This document shows, piece by piece, positions 3,198 through 26,851 of a stretch of DNA of 64,000 nucleotides (positions within the stretch are counted from its first letter, which is position 1; every line of letters starts with the position of its first letter). This stretch comes from Octopus sinensis. Its lineage: Eukaryota. The stretch is from NCBI RefSeq assembly GCF_006345805.1, contig NC_042998.1, positions 91,698,001-91,762,000 on the forward strand. The letters run 5' to 3'. Both the position numbers and the translations under genes were made by a program. The notes below the pieces were generated by a model that saw only the letters and a program-made list of their open reading frames with translations, had not been told where the DNA came from and made no database searches.

Positions 3198-3231
<34 letters not shown>

Positions 3232-3963: not shown

Positions 3964-5200
3964 GTTAGTAACCCTGTAACTTGTAATTAAAATATCATAC
4001 ACTGCATTTCATATAAGTTTGTTCACTGGAATAGAAGTGGAGATAGATAGGGTAATAGATAACATCAAAGAAAGCAGAGGTTGTTTTGCATCCATGACTA
4101 AAGCAGCTAACTCAGAAAAGGCTACACTTCACCTAAATAATGGAGTGAAAGAACAAGTCAACTCTGTAACAATAACAACCTTTTTTGTATGGAGAAGCCA
4201 TTCCAGTATTTTACAGCAAACCAGAATTTTTACAGTTCTCTTAGTCTACATTGCTATGTAATTTGAACTGTTACTCTGATTATTAGATACATAAGCTCAT
4301 TGTTGTATTTTATAGTTGATAGATAGATAATGGGTCTGTTAAACTTAGGTATCCATCCCTCAGTGGAATTCTTCAGACACAAGTGATTTTCACTAGTCAC
4401 TACAATAAAATAGATACATAATTCAATAAATACAATAGTTGATCAACAGACAGCTTAAGTCAAACACTGAAACTTTAGACAAAATTTGAATGTTTTTTTC
4501 ATGCCACTAATTGATTTAGTCTAAGTCAGCTGTTTCTTTTCTTTTTTAATACAATGAATCAAGAATCCTGACCTGTCATTTGGTTTTCACATAATCATTT
4601 GTTCCAATAATTATAGTTGTGATAAATCTATAATAATATTCAGGGTTCATGGCCAGTGGCCTACATCACTTGATTGCATTGTCTCTAACACTACTATTTG
4701 ATGTAGCAATAACATATTTAACAAGGTTTCTCCTAAGGAGAATATTTCTAATACATAAAAATACAATTCTATTTGTACATTCCTATCAGAAAACTTTTAC
4801 ATCAAATGTCATTTGACATCATGGCATTATATAGAATTTGATATGTTATTTTGCATCATATGACTGTAAATCTTCTTGAAAATGATTACACAGATATTGA
4901 TAGGCATTAGCTTAAGATATTCACTGTCTCATATTCCATCGTGAGAATGAGCCTTTTGGTGTATGTTAAAGGTACTTCAGAGAATTGCATTAGATTTGTA
5001 GAATATTGTCTTAAGAGAATTATTTGGTTTTCTAGTTTTACAGCTCATTTACAATTACAAGTGTTGTAGTATTTCAGTTTGTCTAAAATATGATTACAAA
5101 TTTTACAGTGTATACACTTAAACACATACAAATGACATGATAATGTGATTTAACAATTTGTATAGTAAACTATACAATTATATGAATATATATATTTCAG

Positions 5201-5506
5201 ATGTTCCTTCAAAACCAAGAGGACCTCTTGAGGTAACTAATGTTACAGCAGACTCTGCTGATCTTCAATGGAAACCTTCAGAAAGTGATGGTGGAACACC
5301 AATTACTAGCTATATCATTGAGTATAAACAAGCTTCACGATCATCTTGGTCTAAAGCTGGCAGTGTTGATGGTAAAACTACAACATTTACAGTGCCTGAT
5401 CTATCAGCAGGAACAGAATATCAGTTTAGAGTGATTGCAGTCAATGCAGAGGGTAAAAGCGAGCCATTGGAGACTGCTGATGCAACCCTTATTAAAAAGA
5501 AAATTG
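5201..5506 (+). CDS. Exon 5, FN3 domain 5, type A
   Basis: atttcag; VPSKPRGPLEVTNVT...IKKKI; GTAACT; 306 nt. Confidence 0.92.
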
Positions 5507-5581
5507 GTAACTATTTTTTTTCTACACTATGTTTTCATATTTGTCTTATTTTTTCTTACAATCTAAAATTCAAATAACTGC

Positions 5582-5809
5582 TTAGCCCTTTAGCATTCAG
5601 ATTACTTTAACAAATGTAATGCTTATTTATTCACATAGTTTTAAATTAATCATGTATTATCTTGTAACTTTTAAGTTTCAGTGATGTGATTGTTTAGTTT
5701 TAAAGTGGAAGCTGTAGAGTAGGTGTGAGAGACCAGATCTCCTTGTCTGAACATAAAGCATATAGAATATTTGGGCCTGATATGGTCAGATCAAATGCTA
5801 AAGGGTTAA
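5582..5809. mobile_element. piggyBac-like MITE
   Basis: Left end ttag-ccctttagcatt, right end aatgctaaaggg-ttaa: inverted termini beginning CCC with TTAA-type flanks (left mutated to TTAG); second partial copy at 49053-49239. Confidence 0.75.
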
Positions 5810-5891
5810 TGACATGACTAATCTCTTCAATGTTTTACAACAGAAGTATTTTTGCAATATTTCTGACATTTTATGTGCATTTGCTTTTCAG

Positions 5892-6191
5892 CCCGACCAG
5901 GACCACCAATTAATTTGAAACCAACTAAAACGGGTGAAGATTTCATTGAACTTGAGTGGCAACCACCTAAGAATGATGGTGGATCAAAGATCACCCATTA
6001 TATTCTTAAAAAGAAACACAAAGCTAGTGACAAGTGGGAAGATGTTGCCAAAATTGATGAATATGACAGGAAGTATAAACTGAAAAATGCTGAAACTGAC
6101 ACCGATTATTATTTTGCTGTTTTTGCTGAAAATGAAGCTGGAATAAGCGATTCATGTGAATCGAAAAAGATTACTCTTGTGAAAAAGCCAA
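5892..6191 (+). CDS. Exon 6, FN3 domain 6, type B
   Basis: ttttcag; RPGPPINLKPTKTG...VKKP; GTAAGT; 300 nt. Confidence 0.92.
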
Positions 6192-6629
6192 GTAAGTTTC
6201 ATGCACAATTATACTAATGTTGTGGAGAGATTCACCTTACAATAACAGATGTATTATTAAATATGAATAAGGCTTATACTTTGATTTAGTGTAGAATTGA
6301 GCCTCTAACTTTTTCATTCTGTTGTTGTTTTAGATATACTCAGAGCATTTTTTGGATTTTAGTGTAATCAGAGGGGTTTTCATTTGTGTAAAATGATCTC
6401 AAACTCTTGATGTGATGTTCAGGATAGATGCTATCATTCTAGTTGTTATTGATTTAAGAATAATATTTCCTATTGCTTCTTGACAAATAGATATATTTAA
6501 GAACTAGATCATAGAAAATATTGTTAGGATTTTCTAAGATAAATGTTGTAATTTATTAAAAATAAAATAATTATGCAAAGTTAATATTTTATTCTATGTT
6601 ATATCTTTTGATATACATTCTGTAACTGT

Positions 6630-6890
6630 GTGGAGGCCCATTGTATGTATGTATATGTATGTGCGTGTACGTGTATGCACACTCATGAGTGTGCTTTTGT
6701 GTTTGTCTCCACCTCACCACCTGACAGCTAGTGCTGGTTTATTTGATCCCCATAATGTAGCAGTTCAGCAAATGAGACTAATAGAATAAGTACCAGACTT
6801 TAAAAATATGGGCTGGGTTTGATTTGTTTGACTAAGCCCTTCATGCTGGTACCCCAGCATGGCCACAATCCTGAAGCAAGCAAAATATGC
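6630..6890 (+). mobile_element. SINE-like family S2, 3' part
   Basis: gtgtttgtc..cc..accac...atagaataagtaccag.ctt...ccagcatggc is shared with 22770-22975. Confidence 0.6.
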
Positions 6891-7302
6891 AAAATAAAAT
6901 ATTTGAATTTAATCATAACCTCTTGATTATGATATTTCAAGAAAAATATTAAAAAATTTAAACAGCAATTTTATAAAAGACAAACTTCAGTTTGGTTTTA
7001 TCAAACAAAATTTCTCTATTATTTAAACTTGATAAAAGCAAAATATTTTCTTCAAGTCCTTTGTCTCCATATTTTAGGGACTGAAATCATAACTTCATGT
7101 TAACTATCAAATAAAGCTAACTTTAGGGTAACATCCCCACCCCTTTAATTATCAGTTATCATAAGAAGTATGTCTTGATAATAACAAAATATTAATTGAA
7201 ATAATTAATGATAAATCATTATTTACTATGAAAATTATTTTATATTTTATGCATATTTAAAACGGAAGTGATACTATATGTTATTTATCCTTTTTGTTTC
7301 AG

Positions 7303-7608
7303 AAGTCCCATCAATGTGTGTTGGTCCCATTGAAGTTACAGATGTCAAACGTGATGCCATATCTATCAAATGGAAAGAACCTGAAAATGATGGTGGTTCA
7401 CCAATTACAGGCTATATCATTGAATATAGGGAAGAATCTAAAGTAAATTGGACAAAGGCTGGCAAAGTCAATGACTCCACTTTAACCTACACTGCAACCC
7501 ATCTTACTGAGAAAACCAAATATCATTTCAGAGTGATTGCTGTTAACAAAGTTGGCCAAGGTCCTCCTTTGGAAACAAAAGAAGCAACCTTAGCTAAAAG
7601 TCCTTTTG
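7303..7608 (+). CDS. Exon 7, FN3 domain 7, type C
   Basis: gtttcag; VPSMCVGPIEVTDV...LAKSPF; GTAAGT; 306 nt. Confidence 0.92.
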
Positions 7609-8113
7609 GTAAGTTGATATTCATAACATATTTTTGAGCATATTTATAAGTCTAAATTGCTTTCTGTGTTTTCCATATCTTTATAATTTATTGTTTTGGC
7701 AGATATTATTATTATCGTTTATTTTAAAATAAATTAATTTTGTTCAATAAAATTAGAAAATATAATCTATTTTTATGATAGTTTAAGTAGTTTTGTTGAG
7801 TAAATTTGGCAAGTATTATTTATCTGTTCATATATTAAATTAGATAATTTTATTCAATAAAAATGTCAAATACTTTTATAATAAATTAAATAAAGTTCAA
7901 TAAAATTGTTATGAATATGAATTTTATGTTTCTGGTTTAATACAGATAAAACTAGATTTATCAACACTTGATTTTAATTAGTAGTCTATCACAATGGTTA
8001 ATGTACTTTAGTATGTTTAAGTATTTGAATAAACTGAATAAAGAAAATTAATTTTTAATATTGTAAGATATTTATGACATCTCTATATATGTAATTTCTG
8101 TTCTGTTTCAAAG

Positions 8114-8419
8114 CTTGCCCATCAATTCCAATTGGTCCTCTTGAGATCAAAAATGTCACAACAAATTCTGCTGATCTTGAATGGAAGCCACCCAAAGACG
8201 ATGGTGGTACACCTATTACAAGTTACATTATTGAGATTAAACCTTCATATTGCACTGGATGGAAAAAACTCAGCAGTGTAAATGGAAAGACAACAACTTA
8301 TACTGCAATGGCCCTTGAAGAAGGTACTGAATATTGGTTCAGAGTCATTGCTGTCAATGCAGAAGGACAGAGTCCTCCACTGGAAGCAGATGATGTAACC
8401 AAATGTACAACACGTATAG
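8114..8419 (+). CDS. Exon 8, FN3 domain 8, type A (absent from ORF track)
   Basis: ttcaaag; CPSIPIGPLEIKNVTTNSADLEWKPPKDDGGTPITSYIIE...TKCTTRI; GTAAAG; 306 nt. Confidence 0.88.
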
Positions 8420-8604
8420 GTAAAGTATTTTTTTGTAAATATGAAAATGCCTGGTATTTATATGTTTGATAAATGTTTTGCTCTAAGATTATGTTTTGAA
8501 ATACTTCATATAACTTTAATAGTCAATATAATTTATGAAAATAAATATTACATAGTAGCATGCCATTGAGCAAATGAACTGATTCCTTTAGAAAATGTAT
8601 GTAT

Positions 8605-8780
8605 GTGCACAGACATGGTTGTGTGTTTAAGTAGTTCATTTCTCAACCACATGGTTTTGGGCTCTGTCCCATTGTGTGATGCTTTGGTAAAATGTCTTCT
8701 AAAGTACCCAAAGCCTTGTGAATGAATTTGGCTGTTGGAAACTGAAAGAATTCTATTCATGTATGTGTAGTGTGCATATG
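8605..8780 (+). mobile_element. SINE-like family S2, 5' part
   Basis: ccaaagccttgt...ggaaactgaaagaa is shared with 22388-22431 and, reversed, with about 46110-46265. Confidence 0.55.
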
Positions 8781-8970
8781 TGTAAATCATTAGCAAAACA
8801 GATTTATTTATTTAAAATTAGATAGAGTAAATTTTGCCAGTATGGACAATGGACTTTAAATGATGATGATGTGATATAATTTGTATCAGTTACTATTAAT
8901 TGTAATTTCTATTTACAAAGTTAGGAAATAAACAAAGCTAATATGAATTATTTTTTGTTTTATTTAATAG

Positions 8971-9273
8971 GACCACCAGGTCCACCAGTTAATTTGGAGG
9001 TTGTCGAAGTTGGCAAAGACTTTGCTTCAATCACCTGGTCACCACCAAAACAGGATGGAGGTTCTCCTATAACACATTACCACATTTTCAAAAGAATTAA
9101 AAGAACTGGAGATTTGGTGAAAGTTGAAACTGTTGATGCTTTTAACACAAAAGCCAAAATACCTAAACTGCAAGAGAATGTTGAACATTACTTTGCAGTC
9201 TCTGCTGAGAACAAAGCTGGTATTGGTAAAGAAGCAATCACAGACAAAGCAGTTATTCCCAAGGCTGCTGCAA
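8971..9273 (+). CDS. Exon 9, FN3 domain 9, type B
   Basis: ttaatag; PPGPPVNLEVVEVG...PKAAA; GTATGT; 303 nt. Confidence 0.92.
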
Positions 9274-9306
9274 GTATGTATACATTCAGTAAAACATGCA
9301 TGTGCT

Positions 9307-9381
9307 CACACACACACACACAGACACACACACTCTCGCTCTCTCTCTCTCTCTCTCTCCCTTTCATACACACACACACAC
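9307..9381. repeat. (CA)n/(CT)n microsatellite
   Basis: Direct reading. Confidence 0.9.
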
Positions 9382-9934
9382 ATGCACATATCTTGTGAAA
9401 TGTAAATAGCTTAGTGATCAATTTTTAGGGAGAAAGGAAAATGATCCTGCCTATAACATTTGGAAATGACTCTGTTGTGAGCCTAAATGAGCAGATATCA
9501 TTGAATGGTATCAATGCTGCTTAGTATTGTGGGACAGAACTATCATACTGGAAGTTATTGAAATCATTGTCATCTCTTCATTTCTAATTATGCTTATATT
9601 AAGTATTATGTATAAAGAGTGTTGTTCTCTTTACGTTTTTTGCTATCCATATTCTGTCATATCTGCTATCCACCAAGACTAACCTGCTATAACAGAAAGG
9701 TAGTCAGAAGTTATGCTTGTCTTGAACAATTTCTACTGTTTACTTACACTTTTAGAATTAATCAGATGTACTAAGAAACAAATTTTTAGATTAACAATTA
9801 ATATCTTTCTAGTCTAATGAATTAATTTCAAATGGTATATGATAAAATAGACATTCAAGACAAATATGTAAATTTATTTTATATTATATTCACAAGAAAG
9901 ATTGTATTACATTTAATTTGGTCTTTACTTTTAG

Positions 9935-10240
9935 CTGTACCATCACCACCTCTTGGACCTATTGAAGTCACTGATGTTCAGCGAAACTCTATCAGCATCA
10001 GATGGAAAGCCCCGAAAAGTGATGGCAATTCACCTATCACAGGCTATATAATTGAAAAACGTCCAGCAAACAGTACTATATGGACATCAGTAGATAAAGT
10101 TGATGAGAAAACTTTTGACTTGTGTTGCAAAAAACTAATTGAAAAGACTGAATACTTCTTCCGGGTATTCGCTGTAAACAGTGTTGGACAAAGTGAACCA
10201 TTAGAAACAAAAGAAGCAACTCTTGCAAAGAGTCCATTTG
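9935..10240 (+). CDS. Exon 10, FN3 domain 10, type C
   Basis: cttttag; VPSPPLGPIEVTDVQRN...LAKSPF; GTAAAT; 306 nt. Confidence 0.92.
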
Positions 10241-10389
10241 GTAAATAACTTTAATTGTTTTATCTCATTATTTTAGACCTTAAACAAACAAATTACATTT
10301 ATTTTATTTCCTAGTTTCTGCTTTAGCTATGTTAAGTTTTGATAAGTTTTAGTATTATTTACCTCATTCTCACAAAATTCTGATATATA

Positions 10390-10683
10390 CATTTGAGCGA
10401 GGTTGTTGCCAGTGCCGCTGGACAGGCTCCTGTGCAGGTGGCATGTAAAAAACACCATTTGAGTGTGGCCATTGCCAGTACCACCTGACTGGTCCTCATG
10501 CCAGTGGCACGTAAAAGTACCCACTATATTCTCAAAGTGGTTGGCATTAGGAAGGGCATCCAGCTGTAGAAACTCTGCCAGATCAAGATTGGGGCCTGGT
10601 GCAGCCATCTGGCTCGCCAGTCCTCAGTCAAATCGTCCAACCCATGCTAGCATGGAAAGTGGACGTTAAATAATGATGATGAC
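10390..10683 (+). mobile_element. SINE-like family S1 with (GAT)n tail
   Basis: gtggttggcattaggaagggcatccagctgtagaaactct...catgctagcatggaaag.ggacgttaaa + (gat)n; close copies at 26471 (+) and 62344 (-). Confidence 0.8.
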
Positions 10684-10879
10684 ACTACATTATTACTATA
10701 ATTTTAGAAATAATTAATTGTTTGTATCTCCTCTTATATTATTTATACACCCTGGAGTTAGACACCTGGTAACCATCAGAGAGCAGACAATCAAAACATT
10801 GTAAAGATGTAAATATTAAAAAAAATAAAAGTTTTAACTTTGAAGATGTGGTTACAAGTTTTAAAAAGTATACTACGTA

Positions 10880-11292
10880 TCATGACTACTTGTCTGATAA
10901 GGGTACACTAAGCACATACATCACAACCATATCTGTGCAACATGGTGATCTCACGTAAAGATAAAAAGTGGATGACCTTGCAGGTGGGCCCCAGTTAGAA
11001 TTTTCTTCAGGCTGAGTAGCCCATCCTGCTCAAAAGGTCCCTGAATAAAGGTTGTTAAAGGAATTTGAACAAAACACCCATCTTTCCTGAGGTAAATATT
11101 TTTCAAACTCCAAAGAATTCCTCTCAACACATGACTATGATGCTCCCCCACTACTTCTGCTCATGATCAGAGATGCACTAAGGGACTTGGTTATGGTCAA
11201 CAACTGACAAGGAAATCTGTGGTATTGAGCAGAATATTTGCTGTAGACCATCTTTTATACCAAGACATTATTATTATTATTATTATTATTAT
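10880..11292. mobile_element. Interspersed repeat family R3, copy 1
   Basis: catgactac..gtctgataagggtacac...gaccttgcaggtggg...actacttctgctcatgatcagagatgca aligns with 29290-29845; (TTA)n flank. Confidence 0.75.
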
Positions 11293-11651
11293 CAATTGTG
11301 TAAATTGAAGAGCTTATATATTTTAATGTATTATTTCTTATATTTTGTTATATTTTTGAAACATATATCACATTCGTTAACACATTTACTGTTGAATCCA
11401 TATATTTTAGCTCTCTTTTATAGTTAATTGTATCTAATTCTTTTATCATACTTTTAATGGCTGATCACTGAGACTATTTCTCTGTATTCTTTTTATATAT
11501 TCTCTTCCTTTAATAACATCCAATTTACCGTTTTTATAGTTTAATTGCATACATCTATTCACATATTGTAGGGAACTTTGCACATCAATTTTTTAAAAAT
11601 TTGTTCTTTTGATTGATATGTTTTATTCATATATAATTCTTGATTCTTTAG

Positions 11652-11951
11652 ATGTTCCATCTGCACCAATTGGTCCTCTGGAAATCAGTAATGTCACAGA
11701 AAGCACTGCTGACTTAGAATGGAAAGTTCCTAAATCTGATGGTGGCACTCCCATTATTAATTATATTATTGAAAGTAAATCAAGAAATTCATGGTCAAAA
11801 TGTGGTACAGTAGATGGCAAAACATTGACATTTACAGCAACTAAACTTTTAGAAGGAACAGAATATCTTTTCCGTGTCACTGCAGTGAATGCTGAAGGTC
11901 AAGGCCCCTATTTAGAAGCAACTGATACTACCAAACCCACAAAGAAAATCC
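11652..11951 (+). CDS. Exon 11, FN3 domain 11, type A
   Basis: tctttag; VPSAPIGPLEISNVT...TKPTKKI; GTAAGA; 300 nt. Confidence 0.92.
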
Positions 11952-12107
11952 GTAAGATCCAAATTATTTTCATTTTATTCGAAATAATATTTCATATAAA
12001 GTATTTTTTAAAAATATCTTTTATGTTAATTCTTTGATTGATATTTTAGCACCTGTATTAGGATTGTTATTCCTTTGCTTATGATATTACTTTTATCTGT
12101 TTTATAG

Positions 12108-12407
12108 AACCTCCCAGTGCACCTGTTAACTTCCATGCTGACAAAATCGGACAAGACTTTGTCACCCTGCAATGGAAAGCACCAAAAGATGATGGTGGAT
12201 CTAAAGTTACAGGTTATCACTTGAAAAAGAAAATACGTTCTACTGGTGACTGGGAAGATGTTGCATCTCTTAAGGAAATTGATTTCACATACAAGATTAA
12301 AAGTCTCAAGGAAAATGTTGATCATTATTTCTCTGTGTGTGCTGAAAACAGTGCCGGTGTTGGCCCAGCTGCAGAAACCAAGAAAATTGTGCCACAAAGA
12401 GAACCAA
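12108..12407 (+). CDS. Exon 12, FN3 domain 12, type B
   Basis: tttatag; PPSAPVNFHADKIG...PQREP; GTATGA; 300 nt. Confidence 0.92.
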
Positions 12408-13255
12408 GTATGACTGCATTTTATTTATTTTAATCAGTTGAAATAAAATTCTAAAATTTCAATTATTAGTTGCAAACAATATTGTAGATGAGTAATAAGA
12501 GGAGATAAAAACCATAAATCTCATCTGATGATGTAGATGATTTTCTTGCACATAGAAATTGTCTAAATCGTCCATTGAAAATGAAGAGCTAGTGAGAACA
12601 GTTATGATATAAATTTAATAGGTAAAGTTTTGCAACTAGTTAAATAAATACAAAAATGATACAAAAATATGTCTATGGTTATATTCAAAACAAGCCACAA
12701 ATTCTATGCCATGTCTTCCAAGCTCTAAACTTACTCTATTACTCAAATTGAAGCTTCAGTAAAATATATTGATACTCATCATAACAGGCTGGCATTTGGT
12801 GTCATGGAAAGTGTGAACATAACTGAAGCTTCAAGCAACAAATAATTGTACTCACTCAAGTAATAACTGCTATGATATTAAGTGCATTGAGTTTTGCTCT
12901 GTGTATGTGTGTGTGTGCGTGTGTATGAAAGTGTAGTTGTCAGCTAAAGACAACAGTTCTCTCTTGTAGTGCTGAGCTGACCAGTACTGATGCTACCAAG
13001 GAAGGCATAGGTTTTTTTGGCCCATACTGCAGCATATTTTACACTCACACACACACACACACACACACACACATCATAACTTTGTGAGCTTTTTCTTTTT
13101 ATTACAATGCAAGAAACTGATGATAACTAAATGACAACACATCAAAATATTTAAGAAAAGTATAATAGACAGTATGTATAACAGATTGTGAAAATGATTT
13201 TATGACTGTAAAATTTAGTTTTCAATTTCATAAATCATTTTCTTTTTTTTTTTAG

Positions 13256-13561
13256 CTGTGCCAGGAAAATGTCAAGGCCCTATTGAAGTTACTGATGTTC
13301 AAAGGGATTCTATTAGCATCAAATGGAAGGAACCTGAGGACAATGGCGGTTCTCCCCTTACTGGTTACATTATTGAACAACGAGAAAATTCAAGCACAGT
13401 CTGGACTAAAGCTGGAAAAGTTGATCAGTTTACTACTGCATTTTGTTGCAAGTATCTAACTGAGAAAACTGAATATCATTTCCGAGTTTTCGCTGTTAAT
13501 AAAATTGGAAAGAGTGAACCACTAGTAACCAAAGATGCTACATTGGCTCGAAGTCCATTTG
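13256..13561 (+). CDS. Exon 13, FN3 domain 13, type C
   Basis: tttttag; VPGKCQGPIEVTDVQRD...LARSPF; GTATGT; 306 nt. Confidence 0.92.
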
Positions 13562-14082
13562 GTATGTGTTTCTTTTTTTTTTTTTTAGTTAATAATTTGT
13601 CTGTACTGTATTATGAAAATAATATCACTTGTTTATCAATATAAAATATTTAAAACTTGGATATCTAAAACCTAAACAGTTTAAATATAATGATATTTGT
13701 TAAATTCTGTTTTATCTTGGTATTGTTAGTGTGCTAGTAATAAACACTGATTCTGTTTCACTTAATGACATATTGAACCTCTTAAGATACATGTCTCAAT
13801 GCATGAGTTCATATCAAGAATCTTGTAAACCAAATACAAAATCAACATAAAATATTGTTTAATATAATATTTTTAGCTACTGTTTAGAAAGTCTTAATAT
13901 TTCAGCAAACTTAAATCCTTACTTCTAGAATTTAACTATTTTCTTTAATGATGTAACATTTTAAACATCTTTTGTGAATTTAGACATATCTACTTAATTA
14001 CTTATTTAATTTTTCATGCATAAGATTAGTTTATCATATTTTGATAAAGTAACTAATTATAGTTTATATTTGTTATTTTTAG

Positions 14083-14388
14083 ACGTTCCTTCTAAACCAA
14101 AAGGACCTTTGGAAATCAGCAATGTTACACATGATTCTGCTGATTTAGAATGGAAACCATCTGAAAGTGATGGCGGTACTCCAATCACCAATTACATCAT
14201 TGAATTTAGGCCAACTGATAGCAAAACATGGGTCAAATGTGGTACTGTAGGCCCTGATGTAACAAAATATACTGCTTCAGATCTAATTGAGAATACTGAA
14301 TATTTGTTCCGAGTTGTTGCAGTGAATGCTGAAGGACGCAGTGAGCCTTTAGAAGCTAAAGATGTCACGATACCTCGGAAGAAGATAA
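14083..14388 (+). CDS. Exon 14, FN3 domain 14, type A
   Basis: tttttag; VPSKPKGPLEISNVT...PRKKI; GTAAGG; 306 nt. Confidence 0.92.
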
Positions 14389-14853
14389 GTAAGGGACAAA
14401 TTTTCTATTTTTCCTATTGTTAGATGTTTAATTTTCAACAGTTGTTTTAATACGTCCATTTATACCATATTGTTGGCAAAAGATGCTTTCTTTTGCTTTT
14501 GTAAATAACTTAATTTTCTTTTTAATTTGTACAAAAATATTTTATATTAAGAAGTGATTCTAAGTAATTAAAACGTGCCCATTAGTCTTTGTTTCATAGC
14601 ATATTTTGTAGTTAAACTAAAATTACAAGATATTCACATACCCAATTCAACACTCACTAATATATTTGACATGTTATGAAAAGGCTGGAAGCATCCTATT
14701 TTCTTTATGTTTACTTGTTAAATTCTTATATTTTATGCTTAATTTTTTAAATGCGATAAATGTTTAACAAATTGTTGAGTATGAGTATTTTTCTGTTATG
14801 TTTTTAATTAGATGGACAATTAAACTTAAAATCTTTTTTTTTTCATTGAAAAG

Positions 14854-16680
14854 GTCCTCCTGGCCCACCAATTGATCTCAAACCTTCTAAAGTTGGTGCT
14901 AACTTTGTAGTTTTGAATTGGTCTCCTCCTAAGTCTGATGGAGGATCTCCTATCACAGAATACATCATTAAAAAGAAAGAGAAGAAAGGTGATTGGGAAA
15001 TTGAAAGCACTGTTTCTGATTATGACACATCATTGAAAGTTAACCGTATGAAAGAAGAAGTACCATATTATTTCTCTGTCTTTGCAAAGAATAAAGCTGG
15101 CATCAGTATACCCTGTGAGATGGCAGAACCTATTATTCTGAAAAAGGAACCAACTCCACCTTCCAAACCTGTTGGACCTATTGAAGTTATTGATGTTCAA
15201 TGTAACTCTATAACTATCAAATGGAAACCATCAACTCAGGATGGAGGCTCACCTATTACAGGTTATATTGTTGAGAAGCGAGAAGAGAATAAGACTTATT
15301 GGTCCAAAGTAGAAACTGTTGATCCACACACTACACAGCTTTGCTGTCCAAATTTGAGAGAGAAAACTTCCTATCATTTTAGAGTAATTGCAGTGAATAA
15401 AATTGGTCAGAGTGAGCCACTAGAAACAGAAGGAGCTACTTTAGCTAAGAGCCCATTTGATGTTCCATCAGCACCTCTGGGACCACTAGAAGTTACAAAT
15501 GTAACTGTGAATACTGCAGATCTTGAGTGGAAACCCCCAAAATCTGATGGTGGTTCTAGCATTACTGAGTACCTTATTGAAGTAAAAACTGTTGGCAGAT
15601 CCACTTGGTCAAAGGCTGGCACTGTGGATGGTAAAACTACTCAATTCACAGTTAAAAAGCTAATTGAAGATACAGAATATTTGTTCCGTGTTATTGCAAT
15701 AAATGCTGAAGGGAAGAGCCCTCCACTTGAAGCATCAGACATTACTAAGCCAACTAGAAAGCTCTCACCTCCTGGTCCTCCAAGATCAGTTGAGCCAACA
15801 AAAGTTGGAGAAGATTATGCTGTAATAGAATGGCATCCACCTAAAAGTGATGGTGGCTCTCCAATTACAAATTATATCTTATTCAAGCGAGAGAAGAAAA
15901 CAGGTGATTTTACAAAAGTAGTAACCCTGAAAGAATTTGATTCATTTTATAAAATACCAAATCTTAAGGAAAACACAGAATACTATTTCGGTGTTGCAGC
16001 TGAAAATAAAGTTGGCCAAGGTGAAATTGGAGAAACAGCAACACCAGTTATCCCAAAGAAGGCAGCAACAGTTCCAGGCAAATGTATTGGACCAATTGCT
16101 GTGACAGATGTTCAGCGTAATTCAATTAGCATTAAATGGGAACCTCCAAAAGATGATGGTGGTTCTCCAGTGACCGGCTATACTGTAGAAAAACGAGAAG
16201 CTTCAAGCTCCATGTGGACTAAAGTTAGCAAAGTTGATGAATTAACAACTCAACTAAAGGTTGGAAATCTTACAGAAAAGACTGAATACTATTTTAGAGT
16301 AACAGCTGAAAACAAAGTTGGAAAAGGACCACCATTAGAGACTAATGATGCCACTCTTGCTAAAAGTCCTTTCAACCCACCTTCTATTCCTATTGGCCCA
16401 CTTGAAGTCGATAATGTCACTCATAACAGTGCTGACCTTCACTGGAAAGCACCTAAAGATGATGGTGGATCACCAATAACAGGATACATAATTGAACACA
16501 AGGTAGCTTCCAGATCCACTTGGTCAAAGTGTGGTACAGTTGGTGAAAAAGTAAAAGATTTTACAGTTTCTGGATTATCCGAAGGCACTGAATATCTCTT
16601 TGGTGTCATTGCTGTCAATGCTGAAGGCCAAAGCCAACGTTTAGAAGCTACTGATGTTACTATCCCAACCAGAGTATCAG
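14854..16680 (+). CDS. Exon 15, six fused FN3 domains 15-20 (B-C-A-B-C-A)
   Basis: Poly-T tract then gaaaag acceptor; open 1827 nt = 300+306+306+303+306+306; GTATGT donor at 16681; matches the 603-aa ORF. Confidence 0.93.
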
Positions 16681-17179
16681 GTATGTTAATGCTATACTCA
16701 TTGCAATTTAAAAAAGATTCTTAAGAATTACTGAGTTCCTGACTATTATACCAAATGGGGATGAAGTTTTGTAGATATTCATCAATAAATATATGTGGGG
16801 TTTATCTTATTTCTATAAAAGTATCTGTTATTTTAAAATTCTTTCTAGTGAAGTCATACTGATTTTCAATAGCAGCAATAGTTTTATTTGATAAAGTTTA
16901 TTAAACTTTTATGAAATATTGCCAAATTGAGATTTAGTAGATTTAATGTTATGAAACAACGCATTCCTAATATTGGAATTAAGAAGTTGGTATTAAAAGT
17001 AAAATGAGAAATAAAAACAGGAGGATTTAATAAACTAGAAATAAAGGAGGATGAAAAGAAAGAAGGAAAGAAAAACATTGAATCTTCAGTTTTTGTTTGT
17101 AAAAAGACTAAATATATTATAGTTAAGCCTTGAATAAATTTAACATATGCAAATTTCTAGACACTGGAGTTTGTTATGT

Positions 17180-17372
17180 CATCAGCATTATCAGCATTTT
17201 GTCCACTTTCCATGCTGGCATGGGTTGGATCATTTGGCATGATCCAGTGAGTTGGGGAAGCACATCTGGTTTCAATGTTTCAGTTTTAGCATGGTGTATA
17301 TGACTGGATGCCCTTCTTAGTACCAACCCCTTTATAGAGTGTACTGGGTGCAATTTGTTGTGGTACCAGCAC
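17180..17372 (-). mobile_element. SINE-like family S1, degenerate reverse copy
   Basis: gtccactttccatgctggcatgggttgga...ctggatgcccttct is the reverse complement of the S1 core. Confidence 0.65.
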
Positions 17373-18261
17373 TATAGAAGTTGTTTTGCCTTTGACCATA
17401 CTAAAGCGTTCTCTTGATTCTGCATTGCCTCTCCTCAATTCAACAATCATTTCACACCAGTACTATATGTTTGAAAAGTATTTCATATTGAATACTAAAA
17501 TAGCTTGTATTTAAATATGAAAATATTGTACTAGAATTAGCAGCTTAAAATGAGGAATTGATATTTTGTCATGAATACCAAAATTCAGAATCTTAACATT
17601 CGTATCTTAGGACACTGTAGAGAAAATTGGAAAGCCAGTTTGATAATTTTTTAGATTTTAGAATCTTAATATAGTAAATATGGACTTAGAAGTTCATAAT
17701 GAATTCTGAAAGATAGCATTATAATTTTTTATTATTTAAGAAGCTTAGAACAGACTTTTTAGCTGTTGGGTTTGACAAATGAAAGTGAAAATAATTGCAC
17801 TATAAGCATAATAAGCAGTGATATTCAATGAAGCATAACAATTTGTTTCATAGTCCTTCTATTTAGCCAGTTAAATATTTGCTTTTATTGTTTGACAGTG
17901 CTTTAATGTAGGCATTGTTATTAAATACACTTCATATTTTTCAAATATTTTTTACCTTGCGTCAATATAGTTAAAATATTTTGTAATATACTTTTCACTT
18001 TATTCATGCTAAGTTGTGTTAACTTGCTATTAGAATCCATTTTCAAATATTTTTTATATTTCCTCAATTGTGTTTAGAAATCCAAAATTCATTATAGTTG
18101 TAATTTTAGGGTAATCCATGAAACAAACCATATGTTCTATTCCTTGTAATTTTCAATATTTAAAGTTATTTTCATTGATAAAAATATTTTTAATGGTTTG
18201 GATATCTAGTAATTTTAATGCAAAAGTACATCATTTACTTATATTTGACTTCTTATTTCAG

Positions 18262-18564
18262 TTGTTCCAGGACCACCACAGAACTTCAAACATACTAAAC
18301 TTACAGAAGATTATTGTTTAGTAAGTTGGAATCCACCTGAAAGTGATGGCGGTTCCAAAATAACTGATTATATTATCAAAAAGAAAGAAAAGAAAACTGG
18401 AAGCTGGACTGATGTAACAACAGTTAGTGGCTATGAAAATTCTTGTAAGGTGCCTAATTTGAAAGTGGGTGTGGAGTATTACTTCTCTGTCAGTGCTCAG
18501 AATAAAGTTGGTATTGGAAAGGCTGCTGAAACACAAAAGCCCATCATCCCACGAAAGGATGCTA
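18262..18564 (+). CDS. Exon 16, FN3 domain 21, type B
   Basis: atttcag; VPGPPQNFKHTKLT...PRKDA; GTAAGT; 303 nt. Confidence 0.9.
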
Positions 18565-18622
18565 GTAAGTCATAAGTTGTTTAATAAGATTGATTTGATT
18601 AATGTTGTTTATTTAGAAAATA

Positions 18623-19020
18623 CTAGCAGTATCGCCCGCCGTTGCTCGGGTTTGTAAGGGAAATAACTATATAAGCATTTTTAGAAAGTTATAGCCAAAA
18701 TATAGCAAAAAAATGCATTAAAAATGGGAAAAAAAATGATGGTAAATTTTTTTTTAAATCGTTGACTCATCGTAGACATTTTTAGAGAGTTACTTCCATA
18801 TAATAGCGAAAAAAATGCATTAAAATGGAAAAAAAATGATCGTAAATTTTTTTTTAAATCGTAGACTCATCGTAGACGTGCGCTAATACCTAGAAGGGCT
18901 CGATATGAATCACGACTGTAAGATACCCGGTTTTGGTTAAACTGCACCGCAAAATGTGGGAGTAGTTAGGAATCTAAATCATAGGAGATAGACACACAAC
19001 TTCTCTTCTATATATAAAGA
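18623..19020 (-). mobile_element. Non-autonomous Helitron, 398 bp
   Basis: On the minus strand it begins TC (tctttatatata), ends CTAG with a CCCG..CGGG hairpin just upstream, and sits between A18622 and T19021 with no target duplication; internal ~100-bp tandem duplication. Confidence 0.8.
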
Positions 19021-19232
19021 TATATTTTATTTCTTATGAAATAACAATTGTATTTGAGTTTATTTTTTGTTTTTGTGGGGAGGGGGCAGTTTTAAATATC
19101 ACTCAAACATGTTAAAATTATCAAATTAGGATTTCATATGCATTTTATATTCATATTTTATTGCTTAATATTTCAATATATTTTGATATTTAATTTCTAA
19201 TTACAAATCAATCTTTCTTTTATATTTTCTAG

Positions 19233-19538
19233 CTGCTCCATTTAAAGCAACAGGTCCTATTGTGGTTGTTGATGTCCAAAGAAATAGCATTACAATTAAA
19301 TGGTTACCACCAAAAGAAGATGGTGGTTCACCTTTGACAGGATATCTTATTGAGAAGCGAGAAGCTTCCAGTAAAGTATGGTCGAAGGTTGATAAAGTTG
19401 CTGATTTCATCACTCAGTACTGTGTGAAGAATCTTGAAGAAAAAACAGAATATCATTTTAGAGTAATTGCTATTAATGAAGTTGGACAAAGTGAACCTCT
19501 TGAAACTTCTGAAGCTACATTGGCTAAACACAAATATG
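19233..19538 (+). CDS. Exon 17, FN3 domain 22, type C
   Basis: tttctag; APFKATGPIVVVDVQRN...LAKHKY; GTATGA; 306 nt. Confidence 0.92.
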
Positions 19539-19840
19539 GTATGAAATTAATGAATCATAAATTAAATTTCAAAGCTACTCATTTACTTGTAATTTTCAAT
19601 AGATGTTTATCAAATCACTAATATAGAATATAATGTTCTCTTAATTTTAAGTGCTTTTAACAAAAACAATATTTCTATCCATTATACCTTTGTATTTTCT
19701 TGTAATGTCTTTCATTCGAAATTAAATGTATCTACTACTTTAGTTTGTTGTTTATAAAAATAAAAGTTGTTTTATCTCTAAAATAAGCAAAACTACTTCA
19801 TATGAATGAGTGTAATTAAAAACTTTTTTCTGTTTATTAG

Positions 19841-20146
19841 ATGTTCCATATAGTCCAAGAGGCCCACTTATTGTTGATAATGTCACTCACAACTCAGCTG
19901 ACCTTTCTTGGAAACCTCCTGAAAGTGACGGTGGTTCTGACATCATTAATTATATTATTGAAGTCAGTTCAACTGATCGTCCATCGTGGACAAGATGTGG
20001 TGTTGTAGCTCCTGATATAACAAAATACACAGCTCAGAATCTGACCGATGGCACTGTGTATCTTTTCCGAGTCAGTGCAATAAACTCAGAAGGAATAAGC
20101 AGGCCACTTGTTGCTCTTGATGAAACCAAACCAATGAAAGATTTGT
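19841..20146 (+). CDS. Exon 18, FN3 domain 23, type A (absent from ORF track)
   Basis: ttattag; VPYSPRGPLIVDNVTHNSADLSW...TKPMKDL; GTATGT; 306 nt. Confidence 0.9.
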
Positions 20147-20766
20147 GTATGTAGTTCATTCTTATAATTACATTATATTTTTGTAATTTACATGGAAATC
20201 TTAATAAAGTTTTCTCAACACCAACAAAATTCATTCACCAATAGCTTCCTATAGATTCTTGAATGCAAATCTAGAATTGAAATAATATGTAAGAATGTTT
20301 GAAATATATTCATTACTCATCTAAGTGAAAATATTTATACTTTATATTTTCAGGAACTAGTGCTCAACTACTCACACTTAAAATAGAATTACAACAAATT
20401 ATCATTACTAAGCAGAAAAACTTTTTATTTTGCACATAAAATAAATTATTTTTCATACATATAATACACATGCTCAATATAAGATAATTAAAAGAATAAA
20501 ATAATTGTAAGGAGTGTAATGGTTGAATGTAAGAAATTTAAGCAATAGCCTATAAAATATTCTATATTGTTAATTATCTTATATACATAACTCTTACTAA
20601 ATTTTAATCACATTTGGATGTCATTATTTTAAAATTATTATTTTATTTTCATAGTTAATTTGTAATAAATAATCTTCTACCATAATGATCAATTAATTAA
20701 CATTAAATAATTCTTTTTCTTTCAAATCTTTATTTACATTTTTGTTTTCTCCTTTTTTTAATATAG

Positions 20767-21060
20767 CCCCACCCGGACCTCCTACAAATTTGAAACCTGT
20801 GAAAATTGGAACCAACTTTGTAGACTTAGAATGGTTACCACCATTGAGAGATGGTGGTTCTAAGGTTACCAAATATATCATCAAGAAGAAAGAAGATGAC
20901 AAATGGACTAAAGTGACAACTGTTGAAGCTTTTGATAATTCTTGCAGAATTAAAGACTTGAAAGATGATACCAAGTATTATTTTGCAGTTTTTGCTGAAA
21001 ACAAGATTGGCTTAAGTGAACCTTGTGAAACAAAGCCTGTTAAACCACAAAAAGAATTAC
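20767..21060 (+). CDS. Exon 19, FN3 domain 24, type B
   Basis: aatatag; PPGPPTNLKPVKIG...PQKEL; GTAAGA; 294 nt. Confidence 0.92.
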
Positions 21061-21824
21061 GTAAGAGACTGTTTGTTTCATTAATAACTTTTTGTGTCCT
21101 GCTTATTTAATCATTGCTTGGATGAGTGGTACTGTGCTTTAACTGGGCCAATATACTGTTGAAAGATAATAAAACATCTGAAACTACACATGTTTGTATG
21201 AGAATCACTACAAAGGATATGATTTTCCATTTAAAATATTCACTTAAAATATAAACTATTGATTATTTAAAGATCTAATATTATGAAATGAGTTATTATG
21301 CAGATGATAATTGTCCAGAGTATTGAGTTACTTTTGGGAGTGTGAATTATATTCACATTGATTCAAACTCCAATTATCATAAGATGCCTTATTTCCGAAC
21401 ATGTACATTCATTCCATGAAACTTGAACTAGAACTTTTGATTCAAACAAAAGATTCTTAGCCACTCTGTCACATGTTCCAGTGTCTTAATATATGCACCA
21501 AGTGCTTAGTAGATTGGGAAGTTAACAATAAGATTTAGAAATAATGTGTCCTTGTTTGAATTTGGTTTGCAAATATATTTGAGATAAGGTACCTTATAAT
21601 AATTAGTAATAAAAACCTAATGTAAATATTAATATATTCTCAACAGATGAGATTAATTGTCTGAAAAATTATCCTCTAAATATGGAAGTCTTTTCCAAAA
21701 TGCAAAAAGAATCACAAGAATTACTGTCATCTTTATGCTACTTTATTGGCTGAGTTTTATGTTTCATGAGGGCAGTATTTATCATTTAATTAAAACTAAA
21801 CTTTCCTCTTTAAATATATTTCAG

Positions 21825-22130
21825 TTGCACCTTCAATACCAATTGGTCCAATTTCTGTCATTGATGTCCAAAGAAATTCAATTACTATTAAATGGAAAGC
21901 ACCTAAGGATGATGGTGGTTCTCCCATCATTGGTTATTTGGTTGAGAAACAAGAAGCATCTCGTAACAAGTGGTCTAAAGTTGATCGAACCAGTGCTTCA
22001 ACTACAGAACTCTGTTGCAAGAACCTTATTGAGAAAACTGAATATTATTTCCGTGTCTTTGCTGAAAATGAAATTGGACAGAGTCCTCCTTTGGAAACTG
22101 AAGGAACAACTCTTGCTAAGAGTCCATATG
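21825..22130 (+). CDS. Exon 20, FN3 domain 25, type C
   Basis: atttcag; APSIPIGPISVIDVQRN...LAKSPY; GTATGT; 306 nt. Confidence 0.92.
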
Positions 22131-22384
22131 GTATGTAAAATAAATTTTGGATCAATTAATTTAGAATTACATTTTGACATATTTGCTGTCCATGAAAATA
22201 ATTAGATATGTTTTGGTCCTTCAGTGATATTACAATATCTGTTATAATTTTATTAATTTCTGTAACTATACTATTAAAAGAACTTCTTTAAAAACTCATT
22301 AAAGAACCAAAAATATTTAAAAGAAGGATAACCTGTTTTCAGTGCTGGTTATTACAGCAGTAGTTTTCTATTATATCCCTTGGC

Positions 22385-22449
22385 TGGCCAAAGCCTTGTT
22401 AGTGAATTTGGGAGATGGAAACTGAAAGAAACCTCTCATATATATATAT

Positions 22450-22493
<44 letters not shown>

Positions 22494-22975
22494 AGAATGA
22501 GATAATAAATGTTTCCTTCTTGAGCCATGCCAGGCTTATGAGGGGCAGTTTCAATGGTGTATATATTCTCCACCTGGATGGGATGCCGGTCCGTTGCAAG
22601 ATTACTCATTTTTGCCAGTTGAGAGGACTGGAGCAATGTGAAATGAAGTATTTTGCTCAAGAACACAACGCATCACCTGGTCCAGGAATCAAAACCACAA
22701 TCTTATGATCAGGAGTCCACCACTCTAACCACTAAGCTACATGCCTCCACTATATATATGTGTGTGTGTGTATGTATGAGAGTGAGTGAGTGTGTGTCTT
22801 TGTGTTTGTATTTGTCCCCCACCACTGATAAACAACCAGTGTTGATTTGTTTACACCCCCTAATATAGTGGTTTGGCAAAAAAGATCAATAGAATAAATA
22901 CCAGGCTTAAAACTAAGGCAGTGTTCCAGCATGGCTGTGGTCCAATAACTGAATCAAGTAAAAGATAAAAGATAA
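22385..22975 (+). mobile_element. SINE-like family S2 copy interrupted at its (TA)n tract by a reverse-strand SINE
   Basis: S2 5' motif at 22388-22431, (TA)n at 22438-22491, and S2 3' part resuming at about 22752. Confidence 0.6.
22505..22750 (-). mobile_element. tRNA-derived SINE family S4
   Basis: Minus strand starts ggaggcatgtagcttagtggttagagtg (box A-like) then ggttttgattcc (box B-like); related + copy at about 59965. Confidence 0.65.
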
Positions 22976-23274
22976 GTGCAATAAGTCTGCTCAAGCTGAG
23001 CTGGCCATGGATGCCATTAAAAAAAACCTATCTTAATGTAATAAAAAGAATTTATATCCAACACCTAGTTCTCAAGAAATATAATTTATATGCACATCAT
23101 TAAAAAGTTAATACAGAAATTAATTTTTGGATAAATTTTATTGTAAAATAATATGATCTTAATAGGGTTTGATGTAATTGATGTTATGCTATACTTAGTT
23201 TCCGTTGTTATTTCTAACATAATTGGTTATGACTGCTTACTATTAATCTTGGTAATGCTTTTGTTCATTTCCAG

Positions 23275-23580
23275 ATGTTCCATCTCCACCAGTAGGACCA
23301 TTAAAGATCAGCAATGTTACATTTAACAGTGCTGACTTAGAATGGAAACCTTCTGAAAAGGATGGCGGGACACCTATAACTAATTATATCATTGAATACA
23401 AGACTTTAGACAGAACCACATGGTCTAAAGCAGGATCAGTTGATGCACATACCACAACATACACAGCAAAAGATCTCTTTGAAAATACTGAGTATCTATT
23501 CCGAGTCATTGCTGTCAATGCAGAAGGCCGCAGTGCTCCTTTGGAAGCTACAGATATTACAAAACCAACACGAGATCTAA
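23275..23580 (+). CDS. Exon 21, FN3 domain 26, type A (absent from ORF track)
   Basis: tttccag; VPSPPVGPLKISNVTFNSADLEW...TKPTRDL; GTAAGA; 306 nt. Confidence 0.9.
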
Positions 23581-23865
23581 GTAAGATTTTGCTTTAAAAT
23601 TTATAACAATTCTTAAAGAAAATTAAGTTTTTAGGCTATATCAACAGATTTTTAGCATGGTATGTGGATGTTAAATGGTGATGATTTATACTGTATAAAA
23701 ATTTTGTTTATAAAATTTATTGAATTCTCTCATGGAATAACTTTAAAAATTATTTCACATTTTCTATATTTTATATATTTTCACAAATATGTCTAATAAT
23801 ATATGGTTATTATTTAAAATATATGCTTTTGAAATTTTAAATATTAAAATTTTTTCAATTTCTAG

Positions 23866-24168
23866 AACCTCCAGAGCCTCCTATTGATTTAGTTCCAACC
23901 AAAGTAGGAGAAGACTATGCTTCATTAGAATGGAAACCACCAAGGAATGATGGTGGCAGTCCTATTACAGGCTACATCATTCAGAAAGCAGTCAATAAAC
24001 CTGACAACTGGAGTAAAGTTACAAAAGTGGGTCCCTATGAAACATTCTGTAAAGCAGTTTCTCTCCAGGATGGCACTGAATACTACTTCTCAGCAATTGC
24101 TGAAAACAAAGTGGGATTGAGTGAACCATGTGTGAGTCCAAAACCTGTGATACCCAAGAAAGGACCAA
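23866..24168 (+). CDS. Exon 22, FN3 domain 27, type B
   Basis: tttctag; PPEPPIDLVPTKVG...PKKGP; GTAAGT; 303 nt. Confidence 0.92.
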
Positions 24169-24356
24169 GTAAGTTTCAATCTGTTAGAATACATTTATAT
24201 TTTATATATAATCTATTTATGGAGATATTTTTAAACTCTAATTTCTAGTAACATTCTCATTTAAAATTATATTTAAAAATCATGTTGTAGATAGATGGAT
24301 ATATATATTTATCTTTGTATGAAATATGTTACATATTCCTAATTCTTGTTTTTCAG

Positions 24357-24662
24357 CTATTCCTGCTAAACCAGAAGGACCTCTTGTGGTCACTGATGTT
24401 CAGCGTACCTCCATTAGTATTAAATGGAAGCCTTCACCAGATGATGGTGGCTCTCCCATAACAGGTTACATTGTTGAGAAACGTGCTGCATCAAGCACGT
24501 TTTGGAACAAAGTTTCCAAAGTCAATGCATCCACTTTTGAATTGTGCTGTCCATATCTAAAAGAGAAAACTGAATATTATTTCCGTGTTATTGCTGAAAA
24601 CAGAGTTGGAGAGAGTGCTCCTTTGGAGACCAAGGATGCTACTCTTGCAAAGAGTCCATTTG
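24357..24662 (+). CDS. Exon 23, FN3 domain 28, type C
   Basis: ttttcag; IPAKPEGPLVVTDVQRT...LAKSPF; GTAAGT; 306 nt. Confidence 0.92.
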
Positions 24663-24884
24663 GTAAGTACATACTATACATAACTTAAAAGAATTTCACT
24701 TAAAGTCATCAGAATTTTAAAAATATATTTTAATTTCAGTTGCATCAGAATATCATAAAAAGATTACATCTGAAATCCCAAAGCTATAGTTGATGAATAT
24801 TTTCCAGTTTTGTAAAGTTGCTTTCATAAAGATCTACATTATTATTTATTAATCAAACTTCTGTTAATTTAGCCCAAACTCTGG

Positions 24885-25002
24885 CTCGATATTCCACTGA
24901 AGTCGACTTTGCCTTTCATCCTTTTGGAGTTGATAAATTAAGTACCAGTCGCGTACTGGGTCGATCTAATCAACTGGCCTTGTACCTAGAGTAGAAAAGA
25001 AT
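24885..25002 (+). mobile_element. SINE-like family S5 fragment
   Basis: gtcgactttgcctttcatcctttt.gagttgataaattaagtaccag recurs at about 30010, 33430, 33660 (+) and 43160 (-). Confidence 0.6.
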
Positions 25003-25241
25003 AGAATATTTAGTTAGAAATGTTTGATATGTATCACTGATATATTTTAAATGATTGTAATCAATAAAATTTCCTAGAAGACACCTTATGCAATCAAAAG
25101 TCCATATTCATTTTGAACAAGGATAAAAGTTTATAAGAAAAGTTTTAAAATCTCTCCCAGAAAATATTTGTTGATATATCATTTTAAATATTCATGTTTC
25201 ATTTATAGACTATAACATGATCTTTTATATAAATTTTTCAG

Positions 25242-25547
25242 ATGTTCCTTCAAGCCCACAGGGACCACTTGAAGTTGATAATGTAACTTATAATTCTGTT
25301 GACCTTACATGGAAGGCACCAAAGAATGATGGTGGCAAACCAGTAACTAGTTATATTATTGAATACAAGCAAGCCTCACGTACATATTACACTAAAGCTG
25401 GAACTGTGGATGGATCAACTCTTACTTTCTATGTTTCAAATCTAAACGAAGATACTGAATATTATTTCCGTGTTATTGCTGTGAATGAAGAAGGCCAAAG
25501 TCAACCACTGGAAACTTCTGATTACACTAAATTACCCAAGAAAGTTG
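25242..25547 (+). CDS. Exon 24, FN3 domain 29, type A
   Basis: ttttcag; VPSSPQGPLEVDNVT...LPKKV; GTAAGT; 306 nt. Confidence 0.92.
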
Positions 25548-25884
25548 GTAAGTTGAACTCAATTTTTGAAATATTCTCTTCCATTATGTATCAATGTGTA
25601 TCATCAAAAGCTCCAAATGATCATTAGAACTAGTGGTCAACTGTAATTCCTCTCTCTCTCTCTCTTCCTGTACCATGTCTACAGGTCTTAGTGGTCATGG
25701 ACCTCCATTCCAGAATCTCAAGATATATGTTTTTCTTGGGAACGATACAGCTCTAGTTTCCTGTTGCCATTCTGCCAATCTCTTACTCTTTGTTAGACTC
25801 TTGCTTCCCAAGCTTACTACTGAAGCACAATAACTATTCAACCTTCACAGGGTTTTTCATAGAGAAAACATTTTTAAAAAAAAT

Positions 25885-26200
25885 TCTTTTTCTAGTTTCA
25901 GTCATTAGACTGCAGCTGTGCTGGACCAATCACTTCAAGAACTTAGTTTATCATATCAACTCCTGGTATATGTTCCTGGCTAGAACTTACTTAGTCAGTC
26001 TCAATTTGTTAACTGCAAAGTTAGAGCATAAAAGAACACAAACAACATCACCACAATATAAACACACATTTTATACACATACAGATATGATTTCCATTTA
26101 CTAAATTCCATTCATGAAATGTTAATCAACCAAAATATTATCAGACTCAGAACCATGTAGTTGTGACTGTGAACTGAGCTAATAACGTCACAGTCATACT
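25885..26200 (-). mobile_element. SINE-like family S2, degenerate reverse copy
   Basis: gtttcagtcattagactgcagctgtgctgga is the reverse complement of the S2 3' end. Confidence 0.45.
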
Positions 26201-26470
26201 TGAGATCATATATTACAGAAATATAAGGAAAACTTAATTTGTATTCTGCAGAATGGACCAAATTCATTGATTAAAATAAACTTTTATGGAAATTAGATTA
26301 TGATTTAGCTGGCTAGACAGGTGTGGATTAAAGAGTTGCAGATCTTGCTAAAATTGATATTGACTTTATACATTTGAGATTAGTGAAATAAATATCTGGA
26401 GTGAACAGGGATAAAGTAGTCTTAATGCTGTAACACTGAATTGCTCAGTTGTTCAATTAATTTACTTTTG

Positions 26471-26686
26471 TTGCCAGTACCGCCTGACTGGCCCTCGTGC
26501 CAGTGGCATGTAAAGCACCCACTACACTCTCAGAGTGGTTGGTGTTAGGAAGGGCATCCAGCTGTAGAAACTCTCCCAGATCAGATTGGAACCTGGTGCA
26601 GCCATCTGGTTCACCAGACCTCAGTCAAATCGTCCAACTCATGCTAGCATGGAAAGCGGACGTTAAACGATGATGATGATGATGAT
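26471..26686 (+). mobile_element. SINE-like family S1 with (GAT)n tail
   Basis: Aligns with 10472-10683. Confidence 0.8.
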
Positions 26687-26851
26687 TATATAGATTTTCT
26701 TGACCTTACACGACTTGTCCTGTGAGGCAGATATAAAATGTAAGATAACAGAAACATTTTAAATGTAAATTTCTATATACCTCTCTGAGTATTTGATATC
26801 CAATGGAGTATATTTTTACATATTTCTAGTAAAATTTTATTTATATTTCAG

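Follow-up and report, generated by a model that had tools for sequence, protein, structure and literature searches.

Across 64,000 nucleotides of octopus DNA, the modules of one long FN3 gene are encoded one to an exon, except for a single exon in which six consecutive modules are joined without introns. The clear reading is that five adjacent introns were lost there, each exactly at the module border. The loss was probably brought about by one internally primed, RNA-templated replacement in place, in what was probably one germline event.

The six-module exon and its host gene

The window, by which we mean the whole stretch of 64,000 nucleotides analysed (1..64000, + strand), is the interior of one gene and contains FN3 modules only, both ends of the gene lying outside it. 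An exon model was built from the module motif, splice sites and open frame. It comprises 69 whole modules, the first (m1) at 1438 and the last (m69) at 61759, and two partial modules (1-120 and 63835-64000), 71 consecutive modules counting these, and the spliced model is open over 7003 codons. The modules follow an A-B-C triplet order with a 9-module super-repeat across the array, and the mean identity between modules is 0.637 at lag 9 and 0.52 at lags 3 and 6. Outside m14-m19, each module is one exon of 294-306 nt with phase-1 introns. Of the 70 module junctions, 65 carry a phase-1 GT-AG intron, in line with an earlier sequence-only reading (its module numbers are ours plus 1) that had described such introns at every other junction; the remaining five are fused and are all adjacent. 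Intron lengths range from 91 to 1581 nt, with a median of 555 (63 measured). The fused exon and its flanking introns are composed as follows:

14389..14853, + strand: intron 13, kept upstream, 465 nt, GT..AG, removed by splicing in RNA runs X17 and X20
14854..16680, + strand: fused exon, m14-m19 (A-B-C-A-B-C), 1827 nt, phase 1 at both ends, six Pfam fn3 stretches
14854..15153, + strand: m14, class A, 300 nt
15154..15459, + strand: m15, class B, 306 nt
15460..15765, + strand: m16, class C, 306 nt, the module that the single-module ORF P0243 matches best
15766..16068, + strand: m17, class A, 303 nt, grouping with the intron-flanked m8 (support 85/85)
16069..16374, + strand: m18, class B, 306 nt
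16375..16680, + strand: m19, class C, 306 nt, with a normal donor at its end
16681..18261, + strand: intron 19, kept downstream, 1581 nt, the longest of the 63 measured, skipped in RNA contigs

The frame is open through the fused exon, with an acceptor just before 14854 and a donor just after 16680. The coordinates, the six module lengths and the joining without extra bases had been described from the letters alone, and all stand, with no insertions or deletions relative to the spliced paralogues. In an alignment of the block with 10 paralogous six-module blocks that are spliced, the split codon of each of the 5 junctions shared its column with the paralogues, and the fused row had no gap at 14 or fewer residues from a junction. 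GC3 is 0.18-0.28 in the fused modules, close to the rest of the array (0.26, sd 0.04), and is therefore uninformative. For five independent losses among 70 junctions, the probability that all are adjacent is P = 5.5e-6 by exact calculation (8 of 2,000,000 simulated), a value to be read as that of a case chosen post hoc. Within the window, the coding sequence 3' of the fused exon adds up to 15,234 nt, or about 15.4 kb with the partial last exon, which agrees with the at least 15.4 kb given previously.

As for the family of the host gene, the top 6 of 9 matches to solved structures (PDB) were to titin, and the best was to titin A-band FN3 tandems. The closest named protein is LOTGIDRAFT_176120 (P0001) of the limpet Lottia gigantea, which is 49% identical over the whole six-module block and has the A-B-C triplet too; the remaining named matches are titin-like or twitchin-like models at 28-42%. 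Among the 150 matches listed, which are cluster representatives, there was no full-length close relative, only the Lottia protein and more distant ones; one of the protein searches covered proteins up to 3040 aa. The spliced contig of a relative (RNA run X20) agrees with the FN3-only model at three anchors in the stretch from m10 to m54. The host array has titin-type FN3 domains, as judged by the six Pfam fn3 stretches and the PDB matches. In titin and twitchin, however, Ig domains are interspersed with FN3, whereas no Ig domain was found among the 71 consecutive modules in the window, all of which are FN3; the gene ends, where a C-terminal kinase domain would lie, fall outside the window. By domain content, the product appears to work like a titin-type FN3 rod, and we have left membership in titin/twitchin proper unassigned. 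A muscle role is suggested by the domain type.

Several other features of the array were noted. In m54-m58 (51464-54257) and m63-m67 (56891-59710), modules separated by nine positions share 93-99% of their nucleotides. The likeness falls in three patches: 385 nt at 91.7%, 1204 nt at 98.1% with two introns included, and 325 nt at 97.5%; the 1.2 kb patch of about 98% pairs 52039-53241 with 57415-58618. Between the patches the introns have diverged (about 56-58%), and neighbouring modules show 66-71%. This pattern looks like repeated in-register DNA gene conversion, with misassembly as the lesser possibility. At the window edge, m61 (55426-55600) and the partial m70 (63826-64000) are 87% identical, another nine-apart exchange. 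The spliced X20 contig (13,441 nt) stops, by the model, some 40 nt after the start of m54, where the near-identical repeats start, and the relative may share these repeats. In the limpet protein, later A-B-C triplets are nearly identical, so that this array has also been homogenised, with a 3-module rather than a 9-module unit. High-copy genomic repeats, recognised by very high contig depth, lie in introns 19 (17170-17540) and 12 (13655-14024), and intron 20 contains a 100-nt unit in two copies that are 88% alike (18676-18877).

Genomic reality and the ancestral state

A search of sequencing runs listed 24, of which 19 hold at least half of the sampled words, and four (X12, X16, X17 and X20) were examined. 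A single contig spans 13962-17227 with 6 other letters in X12 (study P5), and another spans 14691-17227 with 5 other letters in X16 (study P8). Both are genomic, because intron sequence is present on each side of the exon, and neither is recorded as the origin of the window sequence. In the RNA contigs of X17 and X20, 465 nt (intron 13) and 1581 nt (intron 19) are skipped and the block is one exon. X20 comes from a relative, in which the block differs at 122 of 1824 nt and the flanking exons at 21/303, 20/304 and 21/306. All six modules are also covered at 94-99%, with 17 changes inside the exon, by a 599-aa ORF from assembled reads (P0121). Since its tail continues into sequence resembling the start of intron 19, P0121 is taken as a genomic, fused copy in a diverged genome, about 3% diverged in protein, and all five junctions are fused there. 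The fusion is therefore a confirmed genomic feature, present beyond one animal. The sequence-only reading had named a transcript-guided assembly artefact as one way in which it could fail; this was rejected, because two independent genomic contig sets, with single contigs running intron-exon-intron, and P0121 are all fused.

Whether introns were lost or never present was judged from homologues. A metagenome scan gave 64 homologous loci, and 11 of them, chosen by eye for spaced FN3-only patterns, were inspected for exon borders. In these 11 loci, 32 modules are each encoded by one phase-1 exon of about 300-321 nt, whose start has a constant position relative to a conserved Trp. These loci are distant family members rather than orthologues, with a best module identity of typically 40-61% among the matches listed. 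At L018 3791-4405, one two-module exon lies among five single-module exons, an independent single intron loss in a distant homologue; in two similar loci (L007 2897-3859 and L010 2056-2994), an additional intron interrupts one FN3 module each.

In the module trees, whose deep branches are mostly weak, the fused modules are placed among intron-flanked ones, including m17 with m8 as listed above. In none of the 3 classes did the two fused modules group as sisters (0% of 200 bootstrap trees each). Tandem doubling of a fused triplet was tried and rejected: m14-m16 versus m17-m19 gave 48, 62 and 64%, and no pair came out as sisters in the trees. On a 127-kb contig there is an ORF with one class C module, P0243; it has its best match in m16 (74/96 identical; next m1, 67/96) and ends one residue past the module end, like a read-through into a donor. 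This gives a weak hint of an intron after m16 in an outgroup. Among 12 candidate single-module ORFs around m17 there were 3 matches and no m17 orthologue, and among the homologues found no outgroup carried all five orthologous introns, P0243 speaking to one junction.

Because distant homologues keep one-module phase-1 exons, we read the fused state as loss and not as ancestral absence. The paralogous junctions (65/70), the distant loci, the trees and P0243 together make intron loss the clear reading of the derived state. Ancestral absence with introns gained everywhere else, another circumstance that had been set against the first reading, is contradicted by the introns of distant homologues at the same module position and by the trees. 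Nothing was found in favour of it or of an assembly artefact, and the two together have almost no probability.

Template, site and priming of the loss

Since adjacent introns were lost exactly, a spliced template is the likeliest. The earlier attribution to recombination with a reverse-transcribed spliced mRNA is borne out to this extent: an RNA template accounts best for exact junctions at 5 of 5 sites and for their adjacency. In the favoured reading, cDNA of the gene's own spliced RNA would have replaced about 1.3-1.8 kb of coding sequence together with the five introns, in place, in one germline event primed internally. DNA copying would have proceeded upstream as far as m14; with the exchange points within m19 and m14, introns 13 and 19 would have been spared. 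If so, transcription of the gene in the germline is implied, as follows by logic from an inherited RNA-templated change.

A template of DNA only would require five separate deletions by end joining at splice-site microhomology. End joining is a recognised route to precise single-intron loss and predicts AG|GT borders (available text of PMC3020277). In the present sequence, however, AG|GT is found at 0 of 5 junctions (neither AG before nor GT after), the ancestral borders being judged from paralogues; border homology is 1 nt or less in 53 of 63 intact introns; and the adjacency is again that of P = 5.5e-6. We regard this route as extremely improbable.

The loss could also have come in steps, by at least two RNA-templated events of 1-4 introns each, the growing exon easing the next adjacent loss. 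Single fusions are known in the family (L018), two separate blocks would abut by chance in about 3% of cases and oftener if a first fusion favours the next, and the fusion is old enough to be common to a genome about 3% diverged in protein. Against this, no other loss is seen at the 65 window junctions, indicating a low background rate, so that repeat events at one spot need a local bias, and protein searches of thin coverage yielded no partly fused ORF. Stepwise loss is thus unlikely, though the least so of the rival readings.

Replacement in place had been preferred to insertion from the 9-mer register of the modules, and that preference is upheld on other grounds. The pairings named for it (modules 15 with 6 and 24, 18 with 9, and 20 with 2 and 11, in the earlier numbers) hold as best or near-best: m14-m23 0.53 and m14-m5 0.49, m17-m8 0.57, m19-m10 0.65 and m19-m1 0.64. 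Compared with 18 same-phase six-module windows, the block matched best at +9 (0.612), followed closely by -9 (0.595), -6 (0.583) and -12 (0.581). A register test from the flanks only (modules 1-13 versus 20 onward) did not separate lags 9/18/27/36 from 15/24/33, and so did not distinguish a change in place from six added modules. The weight of the register is therefore thin, and it is no more than suggestive of a change in place. More weight lies on three other points: both exon ends are ordinary module splice sites that are used in RNA, no direct repeat of target-site type was found bracketing 14854-16680, and no donor copy was found, as modules in the window reach at most 71% nucleotide identity to any fused module. 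A poly(A) remnant was likewise not found around 14854-16680.

These points bear on the alternative that six processed modules were inserted, or that the block was converted from a spliced paralogous copy elsewhere in the gene. In its favour, nine-apart paralogues do exchange sequence, as in the 1.2 kb patch described above, the flank-only test was flat, and the gene ends lie outside the window. Its probability is nevertheless small when the splice sites, the missing repeat, remnant and donor, and the best matches, which are the local +9 and -9 blocks and not ones far downstream, are considered together.

For the replacement in place, internal priming is indicated because the coding sequence continues for at least 15.4 kb beyond the exon. 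For the same reason a full-length poly(A)-primed cDNA would need at least 17.2 kb, and the poly(A)-primed route is very unlikely for the long mRNA. Such a cDNA, if the introns downstream came back through later meiotic recombination or lay beyond the conversion tract, corresponds to a model proposed for internal losses in Cryptococcus (available text of PMC2395259). The distances reported there have a median of 672 bp with extremes above 4 kb, however, and introns are kept at all 51 downstream junctions in the window, leaving this model a very small probability. The X20 contig matches model positions exactly at three anchors (m25, m27 and m45), and therefore the mRNA of the relative extends 10.4 kb or more beyond the exon. 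The earlier dismissal of poly(A) priming thus holds for the long mRNA and goes too far for a short isoform. The internal priming proposed with it follows from the downstream length, as a term covering several mechanisms that the data do not separate. We considered three internal routes: an A tract could have served as the priming site, a broken DNA end could have primed copying of the gene's own transcript, or the template could have been a short isoform ending in intron 19.

The short isoform would end in intron 19 or soon after, and its poly(A)-primed cDNA would have recombined in place. It would account for intron 19 being the first one retained; read-through of the donor meets a stop after 13 codons, and AATAAA occurs at 16784, one of five such hexamers in intron 19. 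However, AATAAA occurs in the first 150 nt of 22 of 63 introns, its density in intron 19, 3.2 per kb, is close to the average of 2.0, and intron 19 is spliced out in both RNA runs. Most of intron 19 is without RNA depth in the two runs, which was not counted against the isoform, since contigs drop rare forms. On balance this route is distinctly unlikely.

Priming at an A tract would involve the following feature:

18377..18396, + strand: A-rich tract within m20, with A at 16 of 20 positions; no window of 20-30 nt in the 21 kb of spliced coding sequence is richer in A

The tract is tied with others at windows of 12 and 15 nt and occurs in 1 of 23 class A modules. It is interrupted, lies within a Lys-rich motif common to class A modules (10-15 of 20 A in the others) and was found post hoc. 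Priming there would require a crossover in m19 to spare intron 19. As an internal priming site the tract is a possible, weak candidate. Intron 19 was also considered as a priming site on pre-mRNA, ranking 1 of 63 in A-richness at 80 nt and 30 of 63 at 15 nt; it was set aside, since the rank depends on the window and on the length of this longest intron.

In the remaining route, a DNA break near intron 18 would have been repaired by copying on the gene's own spliced transcript, and five introns would have been erased upstream of the break, more than 15 kb from any poly(A) tail. The fused exon fits the pattern of consecutive exact whole-intron deletions at any position in a gene, a pattern that recombination with free cDNA gives as well. 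We give break priming a minor share of the RNA-templated replacement, by judgement and not by measurement, and only tentatively suggest that the exon is a fixed germline scar of such repair.

Whichever way the replacement was primed, the event was likely neutral, because the protein is predicted to be unchanged, and an effect on the protein is not expected. One predicted cost is that the six modules can no longer be spliced separately.

Comparison with known systems

The route by which internal introns are lost is an open question, as losses close to the 3' end are what the textbook route of poly(A) priming predicts. The octopus locus reveals no new mechanism; its value is as a clean test for internal priming or break-primed repair in the animal germline, because the distance to the 3' end is large and 65 paralogous junctions give the ancestral state within one gene. 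We found no published account of this gene or event in searches, mostly outside subscription journals, on intron loss combined with titin, cephalopods, mollusc titin-like proteins and long-distance priming.

In the available texts of three papers (PMC3020277, PMC2395259, PMC12065846), the exact disappearance of several neighbouring introns is accepted as the signature of a spliced template. Clustered internal intron loss is already known (PMC2395259; Niu, Hou and Li 2005), and the cases described in the parts of those papers available are likewise precise, clustered and internal and leave a long exon. The octopus exon is a new, unusually clean case of it, notable for its 3'-end distance and built-in controls. 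In Cryptococcus (Sharpton et al. 2008, PMC2395259), the distances have the median of 672 bp and the extremes above 4 kb cited above, whereas the octopus exon is followed by at least 15.4 kb of coding sequence; this comparison is with the available main text, and tables and supplements may contain cases at similar distances. Unlike the members of this class in those texts, the octopus exon has an ancestral state that can be read from the 65 paralogous junctions of the same gene.

The other close parallel is RNA-templated repair of double-strand breaks. According to the available text of PMC12065846 (Nat Commun 2025), it produces exact whole-intron deletions in human cells, up to five consecutive ones in tumours; adjacent losses gather upstream of the break in CALR, and no poly(A) primer is needed. 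The authors left its evolutionary role undetermined there. The likeness lies in five consecutive introns lost exactly. The repair described is somatic, in human cells and tumours, and dependent on polymerase zeta, whereas the octopus change is inherited and old, and its sequence carries no legible trace of enzyme or break site. If the break-primed reading is true, the octopus exon would be the evolutionary counterpart of the five-intron deletions in human tumours, and giant one-exon-per-domain genes would serve as recorders with which such events can be counted.
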